From sequence record MH706966: a DNA stretch of 54,655 nucleotides, one strand, 5' to 3'. The notes under the pieces were generated by a model. That model was not told the origin of the DNA. It was given only the letters and a program-made list of their open reading frames with translations, and did no database searches. A program made the position numbers and the translations under genes. Below are positions 2,850 to 54,378 of the stretch, piece by piece (positions within the stretch are counted from its first letter, which is position 1; every line of letters starts with the position of its first letter). The stretch comes from Enterobacteria phage mEp021.

Positions 2850-3573
2850 GGTTAGATAACGCCTCGTTTATTCTATTTGATGCAATTTCGAAATATTTTT
2901 CATCCTTTTCTATGCCGATAAAACGTCGGTTAGTATTAATGCAGGCAACGCCTGTAGTTCCGCTGCCCATAGTAAAATCGAGAACCGTTTCCCCTTCGTT
3001 AGTGTATGTCTTAATTAGGTATTCCATCAGTGCGACAGGCTTTTGTGTTGGGTGTACCTTGCCTTTCTGGTTTGCGTTACTTATCTCTATAATGCTTTTA
3101 GGGTGCTTATCCTTATAAGTCCTTAAATCACCATAATTAATTATGCGGTTTGCCTCCCCAGCAGAATATGTTTTACCCGTCCTTTCCTTTTGCGGAGTTT
3201 TTATTGGGTAATATTTGACAGCGCCTTTAGAAAAAACAACAACATCCTCATGCACCCTATAAGGTTGCCATTTGAGGACTTGCATGTTACCGCCTTTCTT
3301 CTTGTCCCATACCCAGCAATATTTAAACATGCTTATGTTGCTTGCAATTAGTGTTGTAGTGAACGGCTGACTTGCAGTCATCACAATGGCGCAATTCGGC
3401 TTAACTATGCGCTTTAATTGCTCCCACATTGGATTAAGAGGAATGACGGAATCCCATTTGCAGGCCGTTGTGCCGTAAGGCGGATCAGCCATTACCATAT
3501 CAACGCTACCGCCTGGGATAGAGTTCATGACCTCCAGACAATCACCCAACAATAATGTAACATCTTTATTCAT
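2836..3573 (-). CDS. DNA methyltransferase (N6-adenine/N4-cytosine class, DPPY motif)
   Basis: 245 aa with the catalytic motif VMADPPYGT and an HPTQKP motif, followed by a C-terminal SAM-binding FTMGSGTTG. Confidence 0.85.
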   Translation of the reverse strand: MNKDVTLLLGDCLEVMNSIPGGSVDMVMADPPYGTTACKWDSVIPLNPMWEQLKRIVKPNCAIVMTASQPFTTTLIASNISMFKYCWVWDKKKGGNMQVLKWQPYRVHEDVVVFSKGAVKYYPIKTPQKERTGKTYSAGEANRIINYGDLRTYKDKHPKSIIEISNANQKGKVHPTQKPVALMEYLIKTYTNEGETVLDFTMGSGTTGVACINTNRRFIGIEKDEKYFEIASNRINEALSNHEAN

Positions 3574-3789: not shown

Positions 3790-3996
3790 TTACACAATCC
3801 GCATTGTGTTTCGTAATTCACCGCGCAACGCCTGCAAAGCGTAATGAATCGGCACAAAAGCACGGTTAAATTTTACGTGCTTATACTTGCGCATTAGTGG
3901 CGGCGTATAAACCATCGTGCCGCAAGGATCGCATGTGAATTTAAAGTGAGATTCGTCAATAAACGTTTCAACTGAATAAAAAATTACCCGTCTCAT
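3790..3996 (-). CDS. Hypothetical protein (68 aa)
   Basis: ORF packed in the operon. Overlaps the upstream gene by 4 nt. Confidence 0.45.
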   Translation of the reverse strand: MRRVIFYSVETFIDESHFKFTCDPCGTMVYTPPLMRKYKHVKFNRAFVPIHYALQALRGELRNTMRIV

Positions 3997-4586
3997 AATT
4001 CCAACCCCGTTTCCACGTTGAGTTTTTCAATCTCAAATACTGGTTTATCAGGAAGCAGCCCGTTATTTTTACGGTATTCGTTCAGGCGGCTGTCAAAGTC
4101 AAACGCCAAATCATTAGCGTGACCGAATCGCCCAGGTTTAAACAGTGAGTAAAAGTTAACCCCGTGCCTATTTGGATCAACGCAAAGCGTTTCATCAATC
4201 ACCATTAGGCGAAGAGTACGAGAAAGATAATTCCACGGGATACCAGTCTCCGCACTAATGTCACGCATACGCTTTTTAACGCTGTAGTCACCAAATAACG
4301 ACGCAACACGCTCACGACGTTCAGCATATAACTGTTTAATACGATAGCCCAGCAGACGGCGGCGGCGTCCAAAACATGTATATACGCGCTCGACGATACC
4401 GTTTTTTATTAAGTGTTTAATTGTCTCAGGAAGTAACCCATCTTTATCATATCCAGCTAATAACCCCGTTTTATTGCGCAACTGGTGCATTGTTGCGATG
4501 CCATCAAGTTCAAGGATATTGATAACTTTTGTTTCAAGTTCAGCGCTCATTGTTTTTAGCCTCGTTTTAAACGCGATAACAGCCAC
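3993..4586 (-). CDS. Hypothetical protein, possible winged-helix DNA binder (197 aa; alternative start 4550)
   Basis: Long ORF immediately downstream of the helicase. Basic, with an HTH-like segment IATMHQLRNKTGLL. Confidence 0.5.
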   Translation of the reverse strand: MAVIAFKTRLKTMSAELETKVINILELDGIATMHQLRNKTGLLAGYDKDGLLPETIKHLIKNGIVERVYTCFGRRRRLLGYRIKQLYAERRERVASLFGDYSVKKRMRDISAETGIPWNYLSRTLRLMVIDETLCVDPNRHGVNFYSLFKPGRFGHANDLAFDFDSRLNEYRKNNGLLPDKPVFEIEKLNVETGLEL

Positions 4587-4629
4587 CAGAAAGCGGTAAA
4601 CTTTCCGGTAAGCCGTTTGCTCATATTGA

Positions 4630-6045
4630 TTAAAAAGATGCGTTATTCTGGTTGTTTCGTTGGTTAAATCTGCCTGTGCGGTGATTCATAGACTGAATAC
4701 ACGCAGCAGCCGCGCGTGCCTGGTCGCATGGTAAAATGTTGCCGTTATCATCAAACCGCTGGTAAACAGTGCCAGATTTACCATGACGGTTTTTCGATAC
4801 AATGATTTCCATATATTCGCGGGCTACAGACTGCTCATCGTAATATCCATCGCGGTAAACCATGATGATCCTGTCAGCATCTTGTTCAAGGTTCCCGGAA
4901 TCGCGCAGATCTGAATTGTTAGGACGCTTGTTCGGTCGCTCCTCAACGCGGCGTGACAACTGCGCCAGCGCTAACACTGGAACGCGCAATTCTTTTGCCA
5001 TCATCTTCAACGACCATGACAATTGCCCAACAGCGAGATCATGACGTTCAGCCTTAGCCAGCTTCATCAACCCGATGTAGTCAATCATTACCATACCCAG
5101 GTTAGGATGTTCCTGTTTCATCCGTTCCGTGGTGGCGCGTATTTCCTCAACCGTTAACTGCGACGCGTCAACGATCCACACATCAAGATTAGCAAGTGCG
5201 CTCATACCCTTGCCGACATGCGCCCACCCCTCATCATCAAGTTTTACCGGATTACGCAGGCAGTCTGTTGATAAATTACCAGCGCCAGCTATAGCGCGTT
5301 CAGTCATCTGATCGAGTGACATTTCAAGCGTGAAGAACAAAACGCCAACCCGCTGATCTTTACTGCCAGGGTAAGGGCGCTCAGCGGCAGCGCGGGCAAT
5401 TGTCAGCGCCAACGCAGATTTACCAGACCCAGGGCGTCCAGCTAAAAGCACCAAATCAGTAGCGTTAATGCCTCCCAACATCTCATCGAGTGGATCTATC
5501 CCTGTTTTGATGTTGTCAGAATTAACACCGCATTCCATGCGCTTGCTTAAAACGTCCGTATATTCCTGTACCGCATCACGCAACAGAACAGGAATGATCT
5601 TATCTTTCGTTACCTTTAATTTTGAATACCGGGAATCAAAATCTTTCATCGTCTCTTTGACGACCTCAAGCGTCCCCGTCTCCAGTTTGTAGCGCATATC
5701 GTCGATGAGTTCCAACATCTGCCGCCGCTGGTGCTCTTCACGTAGTAGCTGTGCGTATCCCTTCAGGTTGGCAGCAGACGGGCACGATCTCGCCGTTTGC
5801 ATTAGCGGTACAAAGTTTTCGTTGCCAATCTCATCGCCAACCAATAACGCGTCAATAAGATTCCTGTTTCTGGCTTGCGCCCTGATAATTTCAAACGCAC
5901 GTTTATACAGCGGAATCGTGAACACTTCAGGATCAAGAGTGGCGAGAACATCTTGCGCGTTAGGAGTAAGGCCGCCCAACAGCAGCCCACCGATAACTGA
6001 CGCCTCACGTTCCTGCCGTAGTGAGTTTATTTGCTCAGTTACCAT
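4630..6045 (-). CDS. Replicative DNA helicase, DnaB family
   Basis: 471 aa. Walker A motif GRPGSGKSALAL, DnaB-type motifs (LFFTLEMS, DYIGLM, LAQLSR...RPNNSDLRDSG.IEQDAD) and a DnaB-like N-terminal domain. Confidence 0.9.
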   Translation of the reverse strand: MVTEQINSLRQEREASVIGGLLLGGLTPNAQDVLATLDPEVFTIPLYKRAFEIIRAQARNRNLIDALLVGDEIGNENFVPLMQTARSCPSAANLKGYAQLLREEHQRRQMLELIDDMRYKLETGTLEVVKETMKDFDSRYSKLKVTKDKIIPVLLRDAVQEYTDVLSKRMECGVNSDNIKTGIDPLDEMLGGINATDLVLLAGRPGSGKSALALTIARAAAERPYPGSKDQRVGVLFFTLEMSLDQMTERAIAGAGNLSTDCLRNPVKLDDEGWAHVGKGMSALANLDVWIVDASQLTVEEIRATTERMKQEHPNLGMVMIDYIGLMKLAKAERHDLAVGQLSWSLKMMAKELRVPVLALAQLSRRVEERPNKRPNNSDLRDSGNLEQDADRIIMVYRDGYYDEQSVAREYMEIIVSKNRHGKSGTVYQRFDDNGNILPCDQARAAAACIQSMNHRTGRFNQRNNQNNASF

Positions 6046-36331: not shown

Positions 36332-37012
36332 ATGATTCATGTTCGAACCGGACAATTTGCGGTCGTTGTTGATGGCAGACGTTACGAGTTCAACCCATGC
36401 TTTGCTGCAATGGCTAAGATCGGCAGTGACAGGGAACTGGTTGAATATTTCGCAACTGTGCACGGTGGCAAATACCCACAGCGTTTGCCAACGGATCCAG
36501 ACCTCCGCAATCGCATTATGGCGCGTTGTTATGGTGAGTTAGTGCAAACGTCCATCCACGTCCTGAAATGTTGCTCAGAATGCGAAATAGGCCAGTTATT
36601 GGGCGAATGCAGCTTTACTCCTTCGGGTAAGTTGAGACTGAAACCTGGGTTGATGCCCACCAGCGACGTTATCACACTGGCGCAACACTGCATGTATCAC
36701 GGTTTGATTGGTGACGGACCAGATGAGGACACTGGCGAGGAGCAGGAAGGAGACTATAAACAGACGTTTGACATCCTTGAATACGTTTACTCCGCTGTTG
36801 CTCACCTGGGATTGTCTGAATCTGAAGCATGGGGCATGACAATGACCGGATACAGGGCCGCTGTACGCGCTAAAACGCCACCAGACGAAAGAAACGAGAA
36901 ACGTAAGCCAAACGTTCATATAAATAAACGTGATTATGATGAGCAAATGGAGGCAGCTAAAAGGGTGCTGGAATTGATGAAAAAACGCGAGCAAGAAAAA
37001 GCCCGGGGTTAG
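36332..37012 (+). CDS. Tail assembly chaperone (start 36320 or 36332)
   Basis: Lies between the major tail and tape measure genes. Acidic middle and basic tail. Confidence 0.5.
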   Translation: MIHVRTGQFAVVVDGRRYEFNPCFAAMAKIGSDRELVEYFATVHGGKYPQRLPTDPDLRNRIMARCYGELVQTSIHVLKCCSECEIGQLLGECSFTPSGKLRLKPGLMPTSDVITLAQHCMYHGLIGDGPDEDTGEEQEGDYKQTFDILEYVYSAVAHLGLSESEAWGMTMTGYRAAVRAKTPPDERNEKRKPNVHINKRDYDEQMEAAKRVLELMKKREQEKARG

Positions 37013-37052
37013 CCGGGCGTTATATGTCGATGATGCTTTTTGATGGTGCCAA

Positions 37053-37469
37053 TTATCTGAACCTTGCTATTTCAATTCTGCCGTTGCCCAAGTCAATGAT
37101 GGCATGATTTTTTATACCCGCGCCGCCTTCGTTAAATATTCTTTCAGCAAATGCGGCTTTATCAGCGTTACACTCATTGGCTATTCTGTTTCTTATTTCA
37201 TCGTTGCCTTCGAATACGACGCCTACAGCAGCCTCCTTCACAAGTCCCCAGTTAAACCATCTTGCGTAAACCGGTTTACCTTCGAAATGATCGTCAATTG
37301 CTTTATAAAAAACCTTGATAGCTGCGGGTTCCTTCTTGAAGATTTTGTGGTATTCGGCAACATTATTAGCTACATCATCGCAGTTTATATTCATCACATC
37401 GTTTGCGTTGGCGTTGAATGCTAAACCTACCATTACCGCCATCACTGCCGCTTTGATTAGCCGTTTCAT
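37053..37469 (-). CDS. Secreted (Sec signal peptide) accessory protein, 138 aa
   Basis: MKRLIKAAVMAVMVGLAFNANA signal with an AxA cleavage site. It is on the opposite strand inside the tail operon. Confidence 0.65.
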   Translation of the reverse strand: MKRLIKAAVMAVMVGLAFNANANDVMNINCDDVANNVAEYHKIFKKEPAAIKVFYKAIDDHFEGKPVYARWFNWGLVKEAAVGVVFEGNDEIRNRIANECNADKAAFAERIFNEGGAGIKNHAIIDLGNGRIEIARFR

Positions 37470-37482
37470 ACCCCACCCCCGC

Positions 37483-40126: not shown

Positions 40127-41461
40127 TTACGCGGCTTTTATAATTTCTTTATACTTATCTTCCACCATGTTAAAAACCTCTGGTCTGTAGTAGAAAAATT
40201 CGCAACTACCATCAAATTTTACTGGGAAGTTAATTTTGTAATTATTAAGGGTTTTGTGTATCGCGCCTTCTAGTTCATAGATATTTTGTGTCGGACCTTC
40301 TAATGTTTTTACGATATGCAAATCAGGAATCGTTACACCCGCTTTATGTGCGCTACTTAGTATTCTATTTCTTCGTTCGTTTTCCTTAACACTTACCCCT
40401 ACTTTCATTAGCGTTGGTACTTCCAGATCGTCAACCATGATATAAAGTTTGCCGCGTTCGTAGGATAAAAAACCCTTTTTAGCACATTTAGAACAGCCGC
40501 TACCTTCCTTAAGTTTTTGCGGCGTGGTTCGCCACTTATAACCACACACTTTACATAAACACGATACTTTGTTTTTATTCCCTGTTATTTTACCTACCAC
40601 TTTGATATTAGGGTTGATGTTGGCAATGGCTTTTACTTGCTCATCATGTGATATTCTTCGTGCTTGCGATCCTTTTCGTTTCGCACACTTCGGGCAACCA
40701 GTACCTTTTTTAAGGCTGGCTGGAGTAGTTAACCACTCATGACTGCAAGACTTACAGCGGCATAACGTTCTCGTAGTATTGTTAATAATTTTTTCTAATA
40801 CCTCAACGCTAGGACTGGTTTTCGCAATAACTGCAATTTGTTCTTCATGTGATAGTTTGGTGTGTCCGCTACATTTCGGGCAGCCAGTACCATGCTTGAT
40901 GTTGTTGGGAGTTGCTGGCCATTCATGATTGCAAATCTTACATTTGCATAATACTTTTTTTAAACTCGCAGATTAAAAGGGGTTTTATTCAATATTGCTG
41001 TTAACCTTCGCAATAGCTGCAACTTGTTCTTCATGCGTTAATCTTCTATCTGCGCATTTTGGGCAACCTTGCCCGATTTTAAGTGTTTCAGGTCTAGCCA
41101 ACCATTCATGATCACAAACTTTGCAATGGCATAATACCTTTGTTTTATTATTAATAATTACCCCTAACACCTTAATATCAGGATTAACTTTAGCAATAAT
41201 TGCAACCTGTTCTTCGTGTGGTAATGCCCGTTTTTGTGCTCTTTTTAACGCCGCACATTTAGGGCAACCAACACCGCGCTTAAGATCAGCAGGTCTACCA
41301 AACCATTCGTGATTACAAGTTTTGCAGCAGCATGATACTTTTTCCATATTCCCGGTAATTACCCCTATCACCTCGATATTGGGGTTAACTTTTGCAATAG
41401 CGGCAACTTGTTCTTCGTGTGTTAATTTTTTTGTCATAATACCGCTCCTACAATCTTCCAT
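40127..41461 (-). pseudogene. Second Zn-ribbon-array/T5orf172 paralogue (five modules), interrupted by two in-frame TAA codons
   Basis: One 445-codon frame. The track ORFs 40985-41461 and 40127-40600 are its two ends. Stops are at 40985-40987 and 40973-40975, and there is no start codon for the 120 codons in between. Confidence 0.65.
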
Positions 41462-41547
41462 TCCGTCCTACATAACTCCTGCCGAACATTACCAACCAGA
41501 TGCTCCAGATCTCCCGCCATGTGTATTTCTCATTCTTCATACCCGCC

Positions 41548-41802
41548 TCACTTATGAGCGCCTTTTACGCCACATAACTTGTTATAAAAATGGTGCTCAA
41601 CGATTAACCAAACCCTCAGATCTTCACTGAACAGCCGCCAATCAGGATTAATGTCAAACTTCCAGCCATAACCATCGCGTAACTTTTTGGGGTTGGCCTC
41701 TTTCTTCAGGAAAGCATTTAATAAGGCTTTTCCCTTTTTGATGATCCGGTCCTGTGCGTTTTTCTGTGCTTTCAGGTTTTTACCAATCGCCACCAATTTC
41801 AT
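41548..41802 (-). CDS. Basic 84-aa protein (weak RelE/ParE-like look)
   Basis: Trimmed to the ATG with RBS GGGGTGG. ...KKLRDGYGWKFDINPDWRLFSEDLRVWLIVEHH. Confidence 0.5.
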   Translation of the reverse strand: MKLVAIGKNLKAQKNAQDRIIKKGKALLNAFLKKEANPKKLRDGYGWKFDINPDWRLFSEDLRVWLIVEHHFYNKLCGVKGAHK

Positions 41803-41820
41803 AATCCACCCCGCAATCAA

Positions 41821-41976
41821 TTAGTTGACCACTTTCAGGAAGAAATCACAGTATTCATCTTCTTTTGCATTCATCATGAACTGACCGTATTTGAATGCGT
41901 CATCAAAGCCTTTTACAATCGCCACTTCCACCTGTTCGAATGCGTTGTTCAGCATTACCACTACATAGCGTTTCAT
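41821..41976 (-). CDS. Acidic 51-aa protein
   Basis: Trimmed to the ATG with the strong RBS AAGGAGGGG. Its stop is 18 nt upstream of the next gene's start. Confidence 0.45.
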   Translation of the reverse strand: MKRYVVVMLNNAFEQVEVAIVKGFDDAFKYGQFMMNAKEDEYCDFFLKVVN

Positions 41977-42042
41977 GATGCCCCTCCTTTGTTGGTACTG
42001 CTTTCTCTTCTTGCCTCCTATATACATCTTGTTACGTCATGT

Positions 42043-42071
42043 GTGAAGCCATTTTGTAAACTGGGTATAAT
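42043..42071 (+). promoter_or_regulatory. Candidate restart promoter for gpM (TATAAT at 42066-42071) overlapping GCCATTTTGTAAA
   Basis: Consensus -10 hexamer but a poor -35 (GTGAAG). The motif copy lies in the spacer. Confidence 0.3.
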
Positions 42072-42146
42072 TCTTGTGACGAAGTTCTCATTTTTCGCGT
42101 AGAAGCGCGTAAAGATGTATGCAATATGTAACTTATAGGGGGAATC

Positions 42147-42500
42147 ATGCCTGAAGTTTTCAGATGGACGCCGCAAAGAAGCTACAGCGTGACCAGGGAA
42201 CCAAATGTGTCGGTCGTTAAACTTGGTGATGGTTATGAACAGCGCCAGGCTAAAGGGATTAACACGTTGCTTGATAGCTACACCCTGGTTTTTAAAGGCA
42301 GTAGCGCAGGATGCGGTGATAGTGGGAACGTGGCGATCCAGGCAGAAGCATTCTTGAGGGCGCGCGGCGCTGTCGAGGCTTTTTACTGGTCGCCGTCTAT
42401 GGATGGTGTGCAAAGGCTTTTTGTTTGCCGTAGCTGGAGTATGACAAAGGACGGGCCTGTATACACGCTAAACGCAACATTTGAGCAAGTTGTCAGTTAG
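42147..42500 (+). CDS. Minor tail protein M
   Basis: 117 aa. FRWTPQRSYSVTREPNVSVVKLGDGYEQRQAKGIN is typical of lambda gpM. Confidence 0.8.
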   Translation: MPEVFRWTPQRSYSVTREPNVSVVKLGDGYEQRQAKGINTLLDSYTLVFKGSSAGCGDSGNVAIQAEAFLRARGAVEAFYWSPSMDGVQRLFVCRSWSMTKDGPVYTLNATFEQVVS

Positions 42501-42876: not shown

Positions 42877-43125
42877 CTATAAGTTATCACGCAGGTAATT
42901 AACGCCCTTATCAGTGACGAATGAATGGTTTACCTGGTTTTCATCCGTCATGATGATGAATAACTTTTCCTGTAGGTATTTCGCTTTCGGGTACAGTGTT
43001 AAACAGACCTGGTACAGTATCCCGCGCTCAATCAGCAAATCAATAAATTCGTGCTCATGATAACCGATAAGGCGGGCGGCCTGTTTCAACGTGTACACAT
43101 AGTCACCGTGATTACGCCGTGCCAT
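42877..43125 (-). CDS. 82-aa protein with an HTH-like segment
   Basis: Trimmed to MARRNHGDYVYTLKQAARLIGYHEHEFIDLLIERGIL (MerR/AlpA-like helix-turn-helix look). Confidence 0.5.
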   Translation of the reverse strand: MARRNHGDYVYTLKQAARLIGYHEHEFIDLLIERGILYQVCLTLYPKAKYLQEKLFIIMTDENQVNHSFVTDKGVNYLRDNL

Positions 43126-43135
43126 GATTTTATTC

Positions 43136-43369
43136 TCACATATCAAAAAATAGCATGTCAGGTATAAAAGTATCGCCGCAAGAATTTCCATATCCTTTTA
43201 CCGTACTACCATCAATATCAATCACTGTGAGCGGCACAAAATTTAAACAGTCATCGACAGTGAAACGGCTGCCAGAAGGTGTAATGAATAATGGGTATCT
43301 ATTTTTTATATTAAAATCATCATTTTTGTTAGATGTAACAACGAGTTTGATAACACCTATCATCTTCAT
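43136..43369 (-). CDS. Hypothetical protein (77 aa), AT-rich gene
   Basis: ORF in the minus-strand cassette. Confidence 0.5.
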   Translation of the reverse strand: MKMIGVIKLVVTSNKNDDFNIKNRYPLFITPSGSRFTVDDCLNFVPLTVIDIDGSTVKGYGNSCGDTFIPDMLFFDM

Positions 43370-43384
43370 ATATCGGCCTACACT

Positions 43385-43738
43385 TTATTTGCCATTAAAA
43401 CAGCCCAGGTTATCTATGCAGAAGTCTTTTGCCGCTTTTTCGTATTCGCGTTTTGCTTCCGGATCGTCAGCTGGAAAACCTTTTGCGTGTATTTCTCCAG
43501 GGCAAGATTGATCCATAGAATCAGCAAATTCAACATTGACGTTAAAGTTAATATCTTTCGGGTTCATCTCTTCCACCTTATCCGGTACTTGGACCGGAGT
43601 AATATCAAAATCACGATAGTTAAACCCACAGCGAAGTAATTCACGACCTTCATCACGCGCCGCAGCATATGTGTCAAATAGGCCCATGCGTTCCCATCCG
43701 CATTTATTAGTAAACACGTCTAAACTGTATTTTTGCAT
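43385..43738 (-). CDS. Hypothetical protein (117 aa), acidic, several Cys
   Basis: ORF in the minus-strand cassette. Confidence 0.55.
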   Translation of the reverse strand: MQKYSLDVFTNKCGWERMGLFDTYAAARDEGRELLRCGFNYRDFDITPVQVPDKVEEMNPKDINFNVNVEFADSMDQSCPGEIHAKGFPADDPEAKREYEKAAKDFCIDNLGCFNGK

Positions 43739-45957: not shown

Positions 45958-46524
45958 GTGAACTGGTCTGAATTGTTTGTTTATGATGAAGATTCTCCTT
46001 CATGTTTAAGGTGGAAAGTCACCGCTAACAGCAGAACGGCGAGGACTGGCGATGCGGCAGGAAAAATAGTAGCGGCAAAAAGCGGCAATAAGTACTGGAA
46101 AATCACATGGAAGGGCCGTCGCTATTATGCTCACCGGATTGTTTACGAATTATGCAGTGGCAGAAAATTAAAACGCAGTGAGATCATCGATCACATTGAT
46201 GGTAATGGGCTTAATAATAAATTCAATAACATACGCGTAACAGATAAAAAAGGTAACGCCAGAAATATGACCATAGGTCGCGCGACAAGGGAGAGCGGAT
46301 TGCCATTTGGGATATGTTGGCACGCAGAAGGGAGATCTATTAGAGCACGTATCACCGCTGATAACGACAAAAGAGTTAGTAAATCATTTAGCGTTATAGC
46401 GTGCGGTGGACTTGAAATGGCTATTAATGCCGCCGTCGCGTGGCGGTCATTCATGATTGAAGAGCTAAATAAAGCTGGCGCAGGATACACGAAATTACAC
46501 GAAACAGGGGGTTTATATGTCTAG
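45958..46524 (+). CDS. HNH homing endonuclease with AP2-type domain (second copy)
   Basis: GTG start with RBS AGGGGG. IIDHIDGNGLNNKFNNIRVTDKKGNARN plus GLPFGICWHAEGRSIRARI. Inserted between I and J. Confidence 0.8.
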   Translation: MNWSELFVYDEDSPSCLRWKVTANSRTARTGDAAGKIVAAKSGNKYWKITWKGRRYYAHRIVYELCSGRKLKRSEIIDHIDGNGLNNKFNNIRVTDKKGNARNMTIGRATRESGLPFGICWHAEGRSIRARITADNDKRVSKSFSVIACGGLEMAINAAVAWRSFMIEELNKAGAGYTKLHETGGLYV

Positions 46525-49500
46525 TGGCGGCGGTAAAGCAAAAACGCCAACTTTGCTTAATGATAATTTGTTTCATAAACAATTTTATCGGGTTTTAGAT
46601 ATTCTAAGTGAAGGACCAATTTTTGGAGTAGTTAACCAAACAGCGCCATTAAACAGCGTAATGCTTAATGACACGCCTATCACTGACGCAAGCGGAAACA
46701 CATCAGTCCCTGGCGTTAGCTTAGCGTGGCGTAATGGTACGGCTGACCAGTCACCAATCAACGGCTTCAACGCTATTGAGTCAACCGTTATTGTCAACGC
46801 AAAAGTAACTCACGACACACCAATAATCAGGACCATTTCAGATCCCAACGTTAACCGCGTAAGGCTGAATCTTGGCGTTGACTCTTTGGTAAGGTCAGAT
46901 GACAAGGGCAATCAATACAATACATCCGTTATGTTGATGGTTGATGTCAAACCTTCATCGTCATCAACGTGGTCACTGGTTAAAGATATTACTATTGGCC
47001 CAGGCAAACAAAGCGGTGAGTATCTAGAAGCCCACATTATCAACGCGCCGGATGAAAAACCGTTTGATATTCGCGTTCGTCGCGTAACGCCAGACAGCAC
47101 GGGAGATCTTCTTCACAATGATACCAGGTGGAGCAGTTACAGCGAGATAATCGATGATAATTTGTCTTATCCCCATACCGCTGTTGCTGGCGCGGTAATT
47201 GACCACGATCAGTATACTGATACGCCTACCCGCACCTATCATCTGCGTGGGCTGATTGTTGATGTTCCTGATAACTACGACCCGGAAACGCGCACGTATT
47301 CAGGATTATGGCTTGGTGGCTTTAAAAAGGCGTATACCAATAACCCTGCATGGCTTTTCCGGTATCTGGTTAAAAATGAACGTTTCGGGCTTGCCCGTCA
47401 TGCTGGTTACATTGATGTTGACGACGGCGCATTATATACGCTTTCTCAATACTGCGACCAGTTGGTTAGCGACGGATACGGCGGCTTTGAACCTCGCATG
47501 ACGCTTAATGCTTACATCACGGAGCAAATGAGCGCACGCGACTTACTTGATAACATTGCAGGCATGTTCCGTGGTATCGCGTTATGGGACGGGCAACGCC
47601 TTACCGTGATGATTGATGCACCACAAGATCCGATCGCCACCATTACAAATGCAAACGTCGTTGATGGCGCGTTTACTCGTTCAAGTATTGCCCGCGCAGA
47701 ATCTTACAACGCCGTGATTGTGTCATGGACTGACCCAGAAAACGGCTGGGAGCAATCAAAAGAATACGTGGCAGATGATGAATTGATCGCCCGCGACGGT
47801 TATAACGAAACAACGCTAGAGGCGTTCGGTTGCACGTCACGCGGGCAAGCGTACCGCGCTGGCAAATGGCTGATAGAAACGGCAAAACGCGAGCCATCAA
47901 AATTCACGTTTAAAATGGCCCGTGACGCAATTCACTTCACCCCCGGGGATATTATCGAGATACTCGACAATAACCGCGCTGGCGCTCGTTTAGGCGGCCG
48001 CATCGTGGCGAACAGTGGGAAGGTGATAACGGTAGACAAGGTTGATTCTGAATATATCGCGGCTGGTGACACTATCAGTTTACTTGATAGTGATGGCAAG
48101 TTTAAAAAACACCAGATCACCGGAGTTAACGGAAACAACATCACCCTTGCAACCGCCCCCGCATGGATTCGTAACGGGACCGTATTCGCTGTGTCAACTG
48201 AAGCGGCAAAACCTGTTCTGTGTCGAATTATCAGCGTAGCAGAAACAGAAAATAACAGCGTGTACACCATCGAGGCAGCACAACATGACCCACACAAACA
48301 GGCTGTAGTTGATGAAGGCGCAATCTTCGAGGTAAACAACGACACGCTTAATCACTTCCGCGTGCCGAACATTGAAAATCTGAAGGTGTTAAACGTTGGT
48401 TCTGAAACTGTTCAATGTCGCGCTACATGGGAAACACAGACGACAACGCATCGCCTGACCTTTGAAATACGCGTATATAACGCCGAAGGCCGCGTGGTGG
48501 CAGCTTATGAAACAACGAATTACCGCTATGATTTTTATGGCCTCGATGCTGGCAGCTACACACTTGGTATTCGCGGTCGTAATGACACTGGCATGAAGGG
48601 GGCGGAAAGTATTGTTGACCTGGTTATTGGCGCGCCAGCGGCCCCAATTGGAGTTAATTGGGTTCCCGGCGTTTTCCAGGCAACAGTATACCCGATCAGC
48701 AAAACAACACTGACAACTGATACAGCATACGAGTTCTATTTCTCAGGTGAAAATCAGATCACTGACCCATCAAAAGTAACAACTTTGGCGCAGTTTACCG
48801 GGCGCGGCTATCAGTGGACTTTTGGCGGAATGAACACGGGCCATACCTATTACGTTTATGTCCGCACACGTAACGCTTTTGGTGTGTCAGATTTCGTTGA
48901 GTCATCAGGAAAACCAACTGAAAACTTCGATGAAATTAGCGACTACGTCACCAAAGACGTGATTAACTCAGAACAGTTTAAAGGGATGATTAGCGACATT
49001 AAAGATCTTGGCGACCGCGCCGACCTTATCGAAAGCGCTACAAATGACCTTAAAACTGCTACCGACAACCTCAAAACTGCAACTGATAACCTGACAAACA
49101 TCACTGACGATTTAATGGTTGACACTGACAACCTGACAAACATCACTGACGAATTGAGGACTGATACGGACGGCTTAATCACAGAAACAGGGGCCATAAA
49201 AGCTGATACGGACACACTGAAAAAACAAACGGAAGATCTTTATAAAAAGGTTGGGGAAAACGCCGATGATATTGGACAGCATGAGGCAAGAATAGATTCA
49301 CTGGAGGTATCTAGCGAAAAAGTTGGCAGTGAACTTGCGCAAGCAAAAGCAAGCCTGCAAAACGCGTCATTGGCGCTTATCAATAACTCACTTGCACAGA
49401 CTAACACTCGCGTAACTCTTACCGCTCAGTATAAGAAAGGCAGGACAGAGACGAAGGCTGAAATTGACCGTATTGACAACGTTATTGCTGAAGAGAAAAA

Positions 49501-51700
49501 GGCAACGGCTGAATCACTGGAAACCATCACGGCAGAAATGAACACGATGGATTCTAACCTTAAAGGTCAGATCTCAAGCGTGGAACGCGCAGTGGCTGAC
49601 GAGGCCAGCGCACGCGCAGAAGCCATTAACGGTGTGAACGCATCAATAAGCAATCTAGACAAGAAAACAGACGCCAGCATCAATAGACTTGATCAAGCTA
49701 TTGCAGACGAAACGAACGCCCGCACACAGGCAGTCAGTGACGTTAACGCGAGTATCTCATCGCTAGACAAGAAAACTGACGCCAGCGTTAAACGCTTGGA
49801 TCAAGCAATTGCAGACGAAACCAGTGCAAGAACTGAAGCTATCAGCGGCGTGAACGCATCAATTTCCACTCTTGATAGCAAGGTAACAAGCAATGTAACG
49901 CGCATAGATAAAGCTATTGCAGACGAAACGAAGGCACGCACTGACGCAATCAGCGGCGTTAATGCAAGTATTAGCACACTCGAAGGCAACACCAATTCAG
50001 AAGTGAAACGCCTTGATCAAGCAATAGCTGACGAGACTAGTGCCCGCACACAGGCTATCAGCGGTGTAAATGCTTCGATAAGCAATCTTGAAAGCAAAAC
50101 TGACGCGAGCGTTTCCCGTCTTGATAAAGCAATATCAGATGAAACGCAGGCAAGAAGTGCCGCAATAACAGAGGTTAAAGCTGATTTGTCAACGCTCGAA
50201 AATAGCACAAACGCCAGCGTTAAACGCCTTGATCAGGCGATTGCCGACGAATCAAGCGCACGCGCTGAAGCAATATCGGGCATCAACGCAGAGATTGGCA
50301 ACATTGAAAATAATGTTGACAAAAACAGCGATGATATAAATCAGACAAAAGCAAGCCTGCAAAACGCGTCTATCGCGCTTATTAACAACTCAATCGCTCA
50401 AACAAACACGCGTGTTACGCTTACGGCCCAATACAAGAAAGGCCGCAAAGAAACCAACGCGCAAATTGACCGTATTGACAATGTTATCGCTGAAGAGAAA
50501 AAGGCTACAGCGGAAGCGGTTAGCGTGGTAAAAGCATCGATCACGGATCTTGATAAGAAGACTGACGCGAGTGTTTCCCGTCTCGACAAGGCTATCGCAG
50601 ACGAAACAAGCGCACGCAGCGAGGCTATTAGCGGAGTAAATGCCTCAGTGTCAGCGCTAGACAAGAAAACGGATTCAAACATAAGCCGTCTTGATAAAGC
50701 CATTGCAGATGAGACAAGCGCAAGAACTGAAGCTATCAGTGGAGTGAATGCAAGTATTATCACTCTTGAAAGCAACACTGAATCTGAAGTTGGCAGGCTG
50801 GATCAGGCAATTGCCGACGAATCAAGTGCCCGCGCCCAGGCTATAAGCGGAGTGAACGCATCAATTTCCACTCTTGATAGTAAGGTGACAAGTAACGTAA
50901 CCCGTATTGATAAGGCTATTGCAGACGAAACGAAGGCACGCACTGACGCGATAAGTAGCCTTAATTCATCGCTTACCAGTACGATTAATTCGAAAGTGTC
51001 TGAAGTATCAACGGCACTTTCTACGCATGAAGCATCAAGCGCTGAAAAATTTAGCCAGATCTCTGCGTCTTTCGAATCTGTAAACTCAAGTATTACAGAA
51101 TGGTCACAATCTATGGCAACGGCTGACGAGGCATTGTCAACCAAAATTGATCAGTTAACAGTAACCGTTAACGGTAACAAAACGGCGATCGAGACGACAT
51201 CGAATGCGCTAACCGATTTCAAGGGTAACGTTGATGCGTCATATTCAATCAAGCTCGCCACCGATAACAACGGCATGAAGTACGCGACAGGTATGTCGCT
51301 TGGCCTGACTGGTAACGGCACAAACTTTCAATCGCAGTGTATTTTCCTCGTTGACCGCTTCGTGTTAATGACCTCAGCAAACGGCACATATACAACACCT
51401 TTCTATGTCACCAATGGTGCGATGTATGTGAAAGAAGCGTTTATTAAAGACGGATCGATCGATACTGCAAAAATAGCGCAGCAAATCCAGTCAACTGTAT
51501 TTGTTCAAGACTCAAAAGGTTGGATGATTAACAAAGATGGATGGGCGCAATTCAACGAAGTTACTGTAAGGGGTAACGTCATTGTTAAAGGCAATCAAAA
51601 TTTCGATGTACGCAATAGTGACGGACGGGTAATTATTAACAATAATGGCATTACAGTAAATCTTCCTAGTGGTGGTAAAATTATTATCGGTGTTTGGTAA
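46517..51700 (+). CDS. Central tail fibre / host specificity protein J, greatly extended by a coiled-coil repeat region
   Basis: 1727 aa. The N-terminal part of about 800 aa is J-like, including FN3-like segments. It is followed by heptad-like and 36-aa repeats and then a C-terminal beta-rich tip. Confidence 0.9.
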   Translation: MSSGGGKAKTPTLLNDNLFHKQFYRVLDILSEGPIFGVVNQTAPLNSVMLNDTPITDASGNTSVPGVSLAWRNGTADQSPINGFNAIESTVIVNAKVTHDTPIIRTISDPNVNRVRLNLGVDSLVRSDDKGNQYNTSVMLMVDVKPSSSSTWSLVKDITIGPGKQSGEYLEAHIINAPDEKPFDIRVRRVTPDSTGDLLHNDTRWSSYSEIIDDNLSYPHTAVAGAVIDHDQYTDTPTRTYHLRGLIVDVPDNYDPETRTYSGLWLGGFKKAYTNNPAWLFRYLVKNERFGLARHAGYIDVDDGALYTLSQYCDQLVSDGYGGFEPRMTLNAYITEQMSARDLLDNIAGMFRGIALWDGQRLTVMIDAPQDPIATITNANVVDGAFTRSSIARAESYNAVIVSWTDPENGWEQSKEYVADDELIARDGYNETTLEAFGCTSRGQAYRAGKWLIETAKREPSKFTFKMARDAIHFTPGDIIEILDNNRAGARLGGRIVANSGKVITVDKVDSEYIAAGDTISLLDSDGKFKKHQITGVNGNNITLATAPAWIRNGTVFAVSTEAAKPVLCRIISVAETENNSVYTIEAAQHDPHKQAVVDEGAIFEVNNDTLNHFRVPNIENLKVLNVGSETVQCRATWETQTTTHRLTFEIRVYNAEGRVVAAYETTNYRYDFYGLDAGSYTLGIRGRNDTGMKGAESIVDLVIGAPAAPIGVNWVPGVFQATVYPISKTTLTTDTAYEFYFSGENQITDPSKVTTLAQFTGRGYQWTFGGMNTGHTYYVYVRTRNAFGVSDFVESSGKPTENFDEISDYVTKDVINSEQFKGMISDIKDLGDRADLIESATNDLKTATDNLKTATDNLTNITDDLMVDTDNLTNITDELRTDTDGLITETGAIKADTDTLKKQTEDLYKKVGENADDIGQHEARIDSLEVSSEKVGSELAQAKASLQNASLALINNSLAQTNTRVTLTAQYKKGRTETKAEIDRIDNVIAEEKKATAESLETITAEMNTMDSNLKGQISSVERAVADEASARAEAINGVNASISNLDKKTDASINRLDQAIADETNARTQAVSDVNASISSLDKKTDASVKRLDQAIADETSARTEAISGVNASISTLDSKVTSNVTRIDKAIADETKARTDAISGVNASISTLEGNTNSEVKRLDQAIADETSARTQAISGVNASISNLESKTDASVSRLDKAISDETQARSAAITEVKADLSTLENSTNASVKRLDQAIADESSARAEAISGINAEIGNIENNVDKNSDDINQTKASLQNASIALINNSIAQTNTRVTLTAQYKKGRKETNAQIDRIDNVIAEEKKATAEAVSVVKASITDLDKKTDASVSRLDKAIADETSARSEAISGVNASVSALDKKTDSNISRLDKAIADETSARTEAISGVNASIITLESNTESEVGRLDQAIADESSARAQAISGVNASISTLDSKVTSNVTRIDKAIADETKARTDAISSLNSSLTSTINSKVSEVSTALSTHEASSAEKFSQISASFESVNSSITEWSQSMATADEALSTKIDQLTVTVNGNKTAIETTSNALTDFKGNVDASYSIKLATDNNGMKYATGMSLGLTGNGTNFQSQCIFLVDRFVLMTSANGTYTTPFYVTNGAMYVKEAFIKDGSIDTAKIAQQIQSTVFVQDSKGWMINKDGWAQFNEVTVRGNVIVKGNQNFDVRNSDGRVIINNNGITVNLPSGGKIIIGVW
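49580..50990 (+). repeat. About 11 copies of a 108-bp (36-aa) coding repeat, organised as a roughly 1002-bp tandem duplication
   Basis: Unit LDQAIADETSARTEAISGVNASIS.LD.KT.A.V.R. Blocks at 49345-49515 and 49800-49975 recur at +1002 bp with about 85-90% identity by eye. Confidence 0.85.
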
Positions 51701-51740
51701 CCACTGTTGCCCCGCCAAATGGTTGGGGCAACTAATTTTA

Positions 51741-52676
51741 TTAATAAATTACTGGCAAATAAGGAAGATTCATACCTATACAGAAATCCGGCCTGTTACC
51801 TATTTCATACCTGACAATCCTTGATCCTGTTCCGCTTTTCACCTGCCCGTTGTACATCATAATGCCTTTGTATCTTAGTTCCTTGTATGCTGATATAGCT
51901 CTAGTATTAAAGCCGCATCTCAATATTGGGAAGAACGCGTCACCTATTGTCTGGTAACTATTCGATAACGCTATAAATCCCTTAACAACCAATGGCCTTT
52001 GTTTTGTTGAAAACACGCATTGATTATTTTTATTAATGATGGTTATTCCGTCGCCAGGTGATGGCGGTGATTTGCTAAAAATAGCCAAATTCATCGTTAC
52101 CGATCCATATGTGTCACCAGTTGCAGAAGTGTTTGTGTTTGTACAGATCAATTTATTGTTTCCGTCAAACTCAACTGAAACACCGCTATTGCTCCAGTTA
52201 CCGAAAGGAACACCGGCAACTGGCATAGTGTAAGAACCATTAAAGCTAACACTCCCAACCCATAAACATGACATCAATGTATCGTTAGTCGTTATCGATG
52301 CAAAATCTGTGCTATCTGCAACTAATATACCCTCACCAGTAGACGCCTTTGCTATCTCAAACACGCTACCGCTAAAATTAGTGATCCTATCAGAATATGC
52401 GTTCTCACCACTAATTGAAATCCTTGCCGTGCCACCAGAAGCACTAAAGCCTGATATAAAATATGTTTCAACACCCCTGTCAAGCTCAAACGCGTAAGCG
52501 CCTACCTTTGGGATTAGAAACTTATCGCCGCCAGTTAAATCCTTTATGGAAAAACTTTGCGAAAACCCAGCATTTTGAATATTGAAATCTCCAGCGTGTG
52601 AGAACGCACGCAACCCGCTTGTTATTTCCATTGCAGGGCGTCCGTCATTCAGCCCAATATATATACCCGCCCCCAT
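51741..52676 (-). CDS. Beta-rich 311-aa protein of unknown function
   Basis: Trimmed to the ATG overlapping the lipoprotein stop (TAATG). Ser/Gly/Thr/Asn-rich with no signal peptide seen. Confidence 0.6.
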   Translation of the reverse strand: MGAGIYIGLNDGRPAMEITSGLRAFSHAGDFNIQNAGFSQSFSIKDLTGGDKFLIPKVGAYAFELDRGVETYFISGFSASGGTARISISGENAYSDRITNFSGSVFEIAKASTGEGILVADSTDFASITTNDTLMSCLWVGSVSFNGSYTMPVAGVPFGNWSNSGVSVEFDGNNKLICTNTNTSATGDTYGSVTMNLAIFSKSPPSPGDGITIINKNNQCVFSTKQRPLVVKGFIALSNSYQTIGDAFFPILRCGFNTRAISAYKELRYKGIMMYNGQVKSGTGSRIVRYEIGNRPDFCIGMNLPYLPVIY

Positions 52677-52894
52677 TAGTACCACTCCTTACTTCCGCAA
52701 TCTCTAGTCTTGCCACTATGACCATCAGTGCCATCATAAACGCGACAGATCTCACCGGACGGAACCTTAGCCCCGTCAACCCATCTTTCATAGCAGACAC
52801 CGTATGCGCTAGTTGCACAATGGCCGTTGTGTCGATTAGTGTCAGCGCAACCAACCAGAATAGCCGCAACAGCGATAATTGTTACCATTTTCAT
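52676..52894 (-). CDS. Small Cys-rich lipoprotein (72 aa), Cor/Llp-like position
   Basis: MKMVTIIAVAAILVGC lipobox, RBS GGGGTG, and six further Cys in the mature part. Confidence 0.65.
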   Translation of the reverse strand: MKMVTIIAVAAILVGCADTNRHNGHCATSAYGVCYERWVDGAKVPSGEICRVYDGTDGHSGKTRDCGSKEWY

Positions 52895-52986
52895 TAGTAC
52901 ACCCCACTCAGATTGTGTGTATTTGTTGCTTTGTTTATTATAATATACATTTTGTATAAGCATAAAATGCAACATAGATCACAAAA

Positions 52987-52995
52987 TGGTAGAAT
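52987..52995 (+). promoter_or_regulatory. Extended -10 element TGGTAGAAT upstream of the side tail fibre gene
   Basis: Fused to a CACAAAATGG word. The ATG is 34 nt downstream and has a GGAG RBS. Confidence 0.35.
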
Positions 52996-53028
52996 TATTC
53001 CGTTAATTAACATAATGGAGTCATTGCG

Positions 53029-54378
53029 ATGATTTACACAACTGGAACAATTGCCATCAATGGCAACACTGTTACAGGCACGGGTACAAACTTTTCCGCG
53101 CCGCTTTCTCTCATTCGTGTAGGTTGCACGCTCATTACCATCGGCAATCCGGTGCAGATCTTTACCATCACAGAAAGGCCCAGCGGTACTGAACTGTCAG
53201 TAACGCCAGCGGCTAACCCTGCGATCCCCGCCGGAACAAAATTTAGCATTCTGCTTTCTGACTCGATCTCAGTAGATGGTCTTGCTCAGGACGTAGCTGA
53301 AACGCTGCGTTACTACCAGGGTAAGGAAACTGAAATTGCAGAAGCAATTGAATTTTTCCATGAATTTGATTTCAATGCACTTACAACGCTGGCTAACCAG
53401 GTTCACACTGATTCAGCGCAAGTAAGCGCAGATAAAGCGATAGTTCAGCAATATAAAACAGATTCCGAATCAGCCAAATCAGCAGCAGAAGCTGCAAAAG
53501 GTCAGGCGGTGTTAGCTCAAACCGCCGCAGAGACAGCTAATACCAACGCGCAAGCCGCCAGCACTGCAGCGCAGGGATTTTGCGATCGGGCCGAAGAATG
53601 GGCGCAAAGCGTAAACCCCGACAACCTGCTAACTAAAGCCGGCAACCTGGCAGGGTTGACAGATAAATCGGCGGCGAGGTCCAATCTTGGGGTTGGAGAT
53701 AATAGTTTAGTTAAGTTAGGTGCGCTGCACCTGAATGGTGGTGAGTCATTAGTGTTAAGGGGCGCAGAGTCTAACGAGTTAAGGTTGTCAAACTCTTTAT
53801 ACGGGGCTGATAGCTGGGTTGGGATGACGATGCATAAGTGGTACGAGGATTGGACGCGGGCTGGCTTGGTAAGGGGAGGTGGTACCAAATTATCAGACTA
53901 CCGCATCCATGTGTGGAAAGATGGTATATCTGATGCTTTATTCCGATTTTTGCCCGACCAAAGGCTTATTAGCGGCAACAGTGACAACCCGGCGGTTAAC
54001 GAGTTCCAGAAAGCGCCGCTATCGGACCGCGACCATAAAAAAGAAATCCAATACACGGACGGCGAGGAAAGCTACAACCGCGTTCGCCAATGGCTTCCGG
54101 TAATGTTTAAGTATAAAGAGTCGGATGTACAGCGATACGGCCTTATCGCGCAGGACCTGGTAAGGATTGACCCGGAATACGTGCATTTGCTGCCGGGCTA
54201 CGCCATCTATGAGGACGTCAAGGGGGTGGACGAGGAAGGGAACGAGGTAGTAGTAGACCGGAAGGAGATCGGGTATACAGACGATGTGCTGTCTCTAGAC
54301 AGTAATGTGCTGTTGATGGATCTGTGTGCCGCCTTCGTTCATCTGTTGCATAAAGTGGAGAAGCTGGAAGGTAAGTAA
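53029..54378 (+). CDS. Side tail fibre with a C-terminal intramolecular chaperone (peptidase S74) domain
   Basis: 449 aa. The N-terminus IYTTGTIAINGNTVTGTGTNF is typical of fibre proteins. The C-terminus SDRDHKKEI...RYGLIAQDL...LSLD...L is typical of the S74 autoproteolytic chaperone. Confidence 0.85.
   Translation: MIYTTGTIAINGNTVTGTGTNFSAPLSLIRVGCTLITIGNPVQIFTITERPSGTELSVTPAANPAIPAGTKFSILLSDSISVDGLAQDVAETLRYYQGKETEIAEAIEFFHEFDFNALTTLANQVHTDSAQVSADKAIVQQYKTDSESAKSAAEAAKGQAVLAQTAAETANTNAQAASTAAQGFCDRAEEWAQSVNPDNLLTKAGNLAGLTDKSAARSNLGVGDNSLVKLGALHLNGGESLVLRGAESNELRLSNSLYGADSWVGMTMHKWYEDWTRAGLVRGGGTKLSDYRIHVWKDGISDALFRFLPDQRLISGNSDNPAVNEFQKAPLSDRDHKKEIQYTDGEESYNRVRQWLPVMFKYKESDVQRYGLIAQDLVRIDPEYVHLLPGYAIYEDVKGVDEEGNEVVVDRKEIGYTDDVLSLDSNVLLMDLCAAFVHLLHKVEKLEGK

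Follow-up and report, generated by a model that had tools for sequence, protein, structure and literature searches.

Gene content of the locus

We examined a pair of antisense genes in a 54,655-nucleotide (nt) stretch of Enterobacteria phage mEp021 (MH706966), hereafter the window, to whose full length all coordinates refer. The pair lies between the gene of the central fibre J and the gene of the lateral tail fibre, and consists of: i) a gene encoding a lipoprotein of 72 amino acids (aa) (52894..52676, minus strand; start MKMVTIIAVAAILVGC) that is identical to the published Lpp021 (gp81 of mEp021); and ii) a gene encoding a 311-aa protein with a DUF6453 domain (51741..52676, minus strand), a homologue of Rtp44, RBP-Oekolampad and Bas01_0028, which we predict to be a dedicated receptor-binding protein (RBP) of the central tail tip. 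J is encoded on the plus strand (46517..51700; 1727 aa), and its last 39 codons (residues 1689-1727, ending in FDVRNSDGRVIINNNGITVNLPSGGKIIIGVW; 51581..51700 including the stop codon) form a tip that we propose to act as the docking adaptor for the separate RBP. The J and RBP genes converge and are separated by a gap of 40 nt. At the other end of the pair the lateral fibre gene is found (53029..54378, plus strand; 449 aa; phrog_1980), whose product has a C-terminal S74 intramolecular chaperone (PF13884, E value 1.5e-9).

The stop codon of the lipoprotein gene (TAA, 52678-52676) overlaps the start codon of the 311-aa open reading frame (ORF) (ATG, 52676-52674) in the sequence TAATG, and a Shine-Dalgarno sequence AAGGAG (52690-52685, minus strand) is located 8 nt upstream of that ATG. 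The ribosome-binding site of the RBP gene is encoded by the conserved C-terminal K-E-W codons of the lipoprotein (AAGGAG = K-E). The junction ..AAGGAGTGG..TAATG (or TGATG) is kept in 10 further coupled loci, and for two more, mEp515 and WCHEC025970, the annotation shows the same 1-nt overlap. The lipoprotein carries a lipobox (L-V-G-C16) with Ala at position +2, and has five Cys residues in all. In the 311-aa protein Ser, Gly, Thr and Asn together make up 37% of the residues, and neither a signal peptide nor a transmembrane segment was found in it (Kyte-Doolittle means over 19 residues reach 0.89 at most). A first-pass annotation, generated by a model, had described the locus in these terms, as a Cys-rich lipoprotein joined through a TAATG overlap to a Ser/Gly/Thr/Asn-rich protein that lacks a signal peptide, antisense between J and the side fibre; its coordinates and composition agree with ours.

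According to the ORF listing longer forms are possible for both ORFs: the large one would have 314 aa from a GTG at 52685, and the small one 99 aa from an ATG at 52975. The 311-aa and 72-aa forms are favoured by the homologues and by the published cloning primers, which for Lpp021 correspond to the 72-aa ORF. The lipoprotein belongs to Pfam family PF24052 ('Phage_lipoprotein', E value 5.6e-31) and the 311-aa protein to PF20051 (DUF6453, E value 1.6e-104, covering positions 1-290 of the 291 in the model), and tblastn relatives were recovered in 380 and 436 phage records, respectively. Judged from the sequence, both ORFs are real genes and not chance ORFs, and the TAATG overlap together with the Shine-Dalgarno sequence gives translational coupling. 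A search of NCBIfam yielded no match. Over 1.6 kb the region shares 99.9% identity with Escherichia phage mEp515 (PP180003), in which both genes are annotated as 'hypothetical protein'.

Homology and predicted structure of the 311-aa protein

The relatives of the 311-aa protein point to a role in receptor binding. With phmmer, residues 1-286 matched the RBP of phage Oekolampad (PDB 9RPT chain C) with an E value of 8.8e-46. The AlphaFold2 model (pLDDT 85, pTM 0.86) returned a single significant PDB match in Foldseek, which was the same chain (9rpt_C; E value 3.7e-15, TM 0.81, probability 1.00). The first-pass annotation had put the large protein forward as part of an exclusion module, and the structure prediction agrees instead with an RBP. 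The RBP of Oekolampad (Bas18) inserts from the outside into LptDE in its open state (PMC12685063). The identity to other members of the family amounts to 82% for the protein of prophage LSU61, 64% and 61% for those of Bas01 and Bas14 (both over 100% of the length) and 36% for that of Oekolampad.

The conservation within DUF6453 is unevenly distributed along the protein. The N-terminal 20 residues are conserved across the whole family, and residues 241-300 are clade-specific and constitute the part that is best conserved with Bas01 and Bas14 (60-85%). In the Oekolampad RBP, Gln299 touches loop EL4 of LptD (PMC12685063). This pattern would fit an arrangement in which the N-terminus docks on the J tip and the distal region contacts the receptor. 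Based on homology and on the synteny that is described below, we consider the 311-aa protein most likely to be the phage's own tail-tip RBP, and not a second exclusion factor.

Genomic linkage of the DUF6453 gene

We inspected 90 loci that contain a DUF6453 gene, of which 89 are siphovirus loci. In all 89 of the latter the gene adjoins the 3' end of J, either convergently or directly downstream, and the C-terminus of J aligns to or near its last residue. The J tips have a motif of about 40 aa in common (FAFNG..NT..INGNGITVNL.GGG..V.G.W), which was present in 17 of the 17 representative loci that were aligned; the 39-aa tip of mEp021 carries it. The lipoprotein gene behaves differently: it was found upstream of DUF6453 in only 12 of the 90 loci (in 11 with the 1-nt overlap, in PC2 just short of it). 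These 12 loci all belong to E. coli phages or prophages and their RBPs are 34-100% identical to the 311-aa protein. In about 75 SPN3UB-like prophage loci DUF6453 comes straight after J on the same strand, with no lipoprotein gene within 3 kb; when alternative lipoproteins were searched for near DUF6453 in these loci, only spurious matches were obtained. DUF6453 tracks J, and not the lipoprotein. The SPN3UB-like clade (36-40% identity) consists mostly of IMG/VR contigs from isolate genomes, and in Salmonella phage SPN3UB the gene is integrase-adjacent.

These data bear on two other functions that the 311-aa protein could have. The first, which is the one proposed in the first-pass annotation, is that it acts together with the lipoprotein in an infected or lysogenic cell, the two components jointly masking the receptor or otherwise modifying the surface to exclude other phages. 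Such a joint role would suit their translational coupling within one operon, and the PHROGs database labels the family of the large protein 'membrane protein / moron'. Without a signal peptide or transmembrane segment the large protein cannot, however, reach the envelope on its own, and its homologue is a phage RBP that attaches to LptD on the extracellular side. Moreover, the lipoprotein alone excludes, as detailed below, which is the very outcome that the first-pass annotation had named as speaking against its module; the ~75 loci in which DUF6453 follows J without a lipoprotein gene point in the same direction, and neither protein matched a PADLOC defence model at E ≤ 0.01. We consider two-component exclusion already largely refuted and highly unlikely.

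The second is a role in assembly: the 311-aa protein would help the lateral fibre or J to assemble or fold, and would not itself be part of the virion. The position of the gene between J and the fibre gene could be read in this way, and some fibre chaperone genes do adjoin fibre genes. Against this, Pfam and PHROGs searches revealed no similarity to Tfa or to fibre-chaperone families, the lateral fibre already comes with an S74 intramolecular chaperone, a stable and specific complex with the receptor is known for the homologue, and in SPN3UB and NJR15 the gene follows J directly and so tracks J rather than the fibre. A chaperone function therefore appears extremely unlikely.

Comparison with known RBP loci

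The organization of the mEp021 locus is that of the LptD-type RBP locus known from Rtp44/Rtp45, bas01_0028/0029, gp25/gp26 of Bas14 and RBP-Oeko/SE-Oeko. Both proteins are homologous to their counterparts, and the loci agree in gene order, in the orientation antisense to J, in the TAATG overlap and in the J tip motif. In Bas14 (TheodorHerzl) the order is exactly as in mEp021: J, convergent RBP gene, 1-nt overlap, lipoprotein gene, divergent lateral fibre gene. In Bas01 (AugustePiccard) the order is the same up to the lipoprotein gene and the lateral fibre gene is not the next one. The full layout, including the fibre gene, was also found in the mEpimmI prophages of E. coli LSU61 and WCHEC025970. 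Whereas the relatives are virulent and have genomes of 44-50 kb, mEp021 is a temperate, Nus-dependent mEpimmI phage; its J is 1727 aa long and contains long coiled-coil repeats, and its published phenotype is OmpA dependence. Taken together, we are confident that the pair is the terminal host-recognition cassette of mEp021/mEp515-type temperate siphoviruses, composed of an RBP and its cognate exclusion lipoprotein and of the same kind as the LptD-type RBP locus.

The combination also has a counterpart in phage T5, which likewise has a separate RBP (pb5, oad) at the tip of the central fibre and a small lipoprotein (Llp) encoded next to it, which binds the periplasmic face of the receptor of the RBP and prevents the RBP from binding (PMC9586334). 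The systems differ in that T5 uses FhuA as its receptor, which is blocked allosterically, whereas Rtp45 acts by steric displacement of a loop, and in that llp lies downstream of the pb5 gene, whereas the lipoprotein gene of mEp021 lies upstream and is translationally coupled. No homology to pb5 or Llp was found by Pfam or PHROG, and the only T5 tail-tip entry returned by Foldseek was 7qg9_V with a non-significant E value of 1.2. The first-pass annotation had regarded a large coupled partner as foreign to what is known of receptor-blocking lipoproteins; an RBP gene next to the gene of its cognate lipoprotein is in fact what the T5 pb5/Llp pair and the 'RBP locus' of the BASEL phages consist of.

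The lipoprotein and superinfection exclusion

The lipoprotein matched Rtp45 as solved on LptDE (PDB 9RPS chain D) with an E value of 1.6e-18. The mature forms are 52% identical and their alignment is gap-free, also across the strand pairing with β6 of LptD. The disulfide pair Cys30-Cys38 of Rtp45 is kept as C26/C34 in the mEp021 lipoprotein, which differs from Rtp45 in carrying an additional Cys pair, C50 and C66. The cryo-EM structure revealed that Rtp45 sits on the periplasmic face of LptD with a hairpin up the lumen, and that it displaces loop EL4, by which binding of the RBP is prevented (PMC12685063; Dunbar et al. 2025). It has been reported that mEp021 and mEp515 share an identical 'type-A' lipoprotein, Lpp021 (gp81), and that Lpp021 cloned alone under Ptac on a plasmid excludes both phages (PMC11893012). 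The evidence supports a function of the 72-aa lipoprotein, as a member of the Rtp45 family, in superinfection exclusion by blocking the receptor; exclusion was published for the identical protein, and the mode of binding is the one that the homology would predict. The suggestion in the first-pass annotation that a small lipoprotein at this position blocks the receptor is thus borne out by the homology to Rtp45 and by the exclusion phenotype of Lpp021.

A similar role is played by Cor of T1, φ80, N15 and the lambdoid mEp phages, also a small lipoprotein that is encoded next to J and that excludes phages using the same receptor. Unlike in mEp021, the receptor of the Cor phages, FhuA, is recognised without a DUF6453 RBP. 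Membership of the Cor family itself was considered for the mEp021 lipoprotein and rejected: the match to phrog_1119 is weak (E value 0.0094) and restricted to the signal-peptide residues 1-31.

The following sequence of events may be envisaged. The lipoprotein is exported and lipidated at Cys16, and the Ala at +2 implies sorting to the inner leaflet of the outer membrane. As the homology to Rtp45 suggests, it would attach to the receptor barrel from the periplasmic side and push its β-hairpin up the lumen, so that an extracellular loop is displaced and the RBP of an incoming phage cannot bind. The 311-aa protein, because it has no export signal, would be made in the cytoplasm and might be mounted through its conserved N-terminus on the 39-aa J tip; on the virion it would insert into the receptor and so commit the phage to irreversible adsorption. 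The TAATG coupling may serve to keep the RBP and the matching antidote co-expressed, and to let both be inherited together as a unit that can be swapped.

A distant DUF6453-like gene (23-25% identity) was also noted in podoviruses of the Gordonclarkvirinae, right after the tail fibre gene (EK010 locus 3896-4930), with a PF24052-like lipoprotein encoded elsewhere in the genome (phiEco32, NC_010324, 66122-66313). This hints that these phages may use the same combination of RBP and exclusion protein, unlinked and in a different morphotype.

Exchange of the cassette within the mEpimmI group

A comparison with the sister phages of mEp021 delimits the exchanged region. The J proteins of mEp021 and of the LamB-using mEp044 are 95% identical up to residue 1688, where a sharp mosaic breakpoint is found. 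Beyond it mEp021 has the 39-aa tip and mEp044 an extension of 130 aa (mEp044 locus 3082-3471) that is 61-63% identical to the J tips of HK97 (61%) and 9g. The separate DUF6453 RBP is present in mEp021 and absent in mEp044, and the lipoprotein is Rtp45-like in mEp021 and of a different type (type C) in mEp044. The type-C cassette of mEp010 and mEp044 thus occupies the same slot, with a shared J backbone as far as residue 1688 and a shared, conserved fibre promoter block. Its small antisense lipoprotein also acts in exclusion, but the cassette has a J extension in place of a separate RBP. The block that is conserved among all mEpimmI phages has its left edge at 52945, within the intergenic region, which implies that the swapped cassette comprises the J tip, the RBP gene and the lipoprotein gene (~51581-52944).

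Residues 190-335 of the lateral fibre (53596-54033) are 55-78% identical to fibres of virulent Dhillonvirus/Drexlerviridae phages (JL1, SSL-2009a, BF9, SH6), and the whole host-recognition end of mEp021 looks exchanged with small lytic siphoviruses. The cassette of J tip, RBP, lipoprotein and lateral fibre would be one that is traded between virulent small siphoviruses and the temperate mEpimmI phages. In this group of temperate phages, which was described recently and is prevalent in the gut, two 'hypothetical proteins' become recognisable as an RBP and exclusion cassette. It is an ordinary and well-conserved cassette of a known kind that is newly recognised in a temperate phage group, and involves no new mechanism.

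The mEp021 allele appears to be rare among sequenced prophages, although mEpimmI phages were reported to be common: by megablast the cassette (51741-52894) was found in only 3 of 5426 complete E. coli genomes, with 75-99% nucleotide identity. J has a length of 1727 aa in mEp021 and 1393 aa in the otherwise near-identical mEp515 (a difference of 1002 bp), and the C-terminal half of the protein contains the coiled-coil 'RLDxAIADETSAR..AISGVNASIS' repeats in which the mEp paper locates the length variation. This suggests that the length of the central fibre varies via gain and loss of repeats.

LptD or OmpA as the receptor

LptD, the essential translocon of lipopolysaccharide, is predicted to be the receptor of the 311-aa RBP. 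LptD dependence was established for Bas01, Bas14, Bas18 and others via resistance mutations in lptD (PMC8594841, Maffei et al.) and confirmed for OzMSK (Black et al. 2025). In a screen of 255 phages, the families of RBP loci proved receptor-specific at >30% identity and >99% coverage (bioRxiv 10.64898/2026.04.02.716166). The cassette code of the BASEL phages correctly predicted the measured LamB receptor of the mEp044 cassette, and this success for sister phages adds weight to its prediction for mEp021.

Several points weigh against this view of the cassette and its receptor. The ompA Keio mutant strongly inhibits mEp021 and mEp515, to ~10^2 plaque-forming units per mL, where four sister phages need LamB, and the authors of that study hold J responsible for recognising the receptor, without discussing the gene of the 311-aa protein (PMC11893012). 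We looked for this protein in the mEp021 paper and its supplements and found no direct evidence of its presence in the virion, the 16 proteins from mass spectrometry being given there in a figure only. The attachment of DUF6453-type RBPs to J is an assumption in the literature and not a visualised contact. Finally, a sigma-70 scan found no promoter for the antisense operon on the minus strand of the region 52895-53028.

With respect to the phenotype of the ompA mutant, it should be noted that a Keio-based receptor test cannot detect LptD, because the latter is essential. We slightly favour the interpretation that the irreversible receptor of mEp021 and mEp515 is LptD, reached via DUF6453, that the assignment of OmpA binding to J is incomplete, and that OmpA constitutes a second requirement that is separately recognised. 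The requirement for OmpA might then parallel that for NupG in Bas01, which depends on NupG beside LptD (bioRxiv 10.64898/2026.04.02.716166). What sets the OmpA users apart from the LamB users is confined to the part downstream of J residue 1688, with its J tip, RBP, lipoprotein and fibre; of these four, either the J tip, the RBP or the lateral fibre must hold the OmpA determinant. The resemblance of the distal fibre region to Dhillonvirus/Drexlerviridae fibres identifies no OmpA binder.

The same observations could also be explained by a switch of receptor, in which the DUF6453 variant of mEp021 binds OmpA and Lpp021 masks OmpA instead of LptD. Besides the drop caused by the ompA knockout and the location of the differences downstream of residue 1688, the co-occurrence of the type-A lipoprotein with the use of OmpA would be in line with it. 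Both of the binding modes that were solved, the deep insertion of the RBP and the hairpin of Rtp45, need a wide lumen, however, which the 8-stranded barrel of OmpA lacks. The 61-64% identity to the RBPs of phages with verified LptD dependence is, moreover, highest in the C-terminal region, which is the part that contacts EL4 in RBP-Oekolampad (Gln299). LptD binding persists in the family down to 33% identity (Oekolampad versus Rtp44), and the gap-free alignment of the lipoprotein to Rtp45 extends over the strand that pairs with β6 of LptD. We therefore hold a switch to OmpA to be unlikely; an RBP of the DUF6453 family retargeted to OmpA would be the more surprising alternative.

If LptD is indeed the receptor, lysogens or infected cells that express Lpp021 would carry LptD locked in a loop-displaced conformation of the Rtp45 type. 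The published receptor model receives a testable correction, as J alone is unlikely to be the reader of the receptor in the OmpA group.

Putative regulatory elements

The gap between J and the RBP gene contains a hairpin (51706..51732; folded on the plus strand, -19.2 kcal/mol, z = -3.9) that is followed by the U-rich sequence UAAUUUUAUUAAU; on the minus strand no U tract follows it. Terminators were predicted by ARNold at the same place in mEp044 and mEp010, and the hairpin is probably the intrinsic terminator of J on the plus strand.

The divergent control region between the lipoprotein gene and the lateral fibre gene (52895..53028) contains a TATAAT sequence, a dispersed word and an extended -10-like element. 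The TATAAT is located at 52942-52937 on the minus strand and has no good -35 element. The extended -10-like element, TGGTAGAAT (52987-52995, plus strand), lies upstream of the fibre gene and is invariant in five phages; it is a predicted promoter that probably drives the fibre gene. To the right of 52945, the sequence is conserved in the LamB-type mEpimmI phages as well. The first-pass annotation had seen in this region a promoter with a perfect palindromic 15-mer in its spacer that repeats a dispersed word. This stands only in part: there is a 15-mer (TATACATTTTGTATA, 52944-52958) with perfect inverted arms of 6 bp and its core word is dispersed, but it is not palindromic throughout, having a 3-nt centre, and the promoter was not retrieved by the sigma-70 scan.

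The core word CATTTTGTATA occurs at 14 sites in the window (allowing ≤1 mismatch) versus 1.3 in shuffled sequences. The sites are mostly intergenic and often found where antisense islands meet plus-strand genes; further ones are located at 2376, 6063, 7725, 11925, 12607, 20076/20144, 37647/37676 and 42050. Two inverted pairs were observed, upstream of the tape-measure ORF and upstream of ORF 20295. The copy at 52944-52958 coincides with the left edge of the block conserved in the mEpimmI phages, that is, with the recombination boundary of the cassette. A site for a regulator and a recombination linker are both possibilities for the function of the word. Next to the 15-mer lies a 10-bp palindrome (TATTATAATA) that is not dispersed.

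Islands of small antisense genes interrupt the plus-strand tail operon at 36870-37470, 40127-42413 and 42877-43738 (minus-strand ORFs). They include an HNH endonuclease in mEp515, and the RBP/lipoprotein operon forms another such island.

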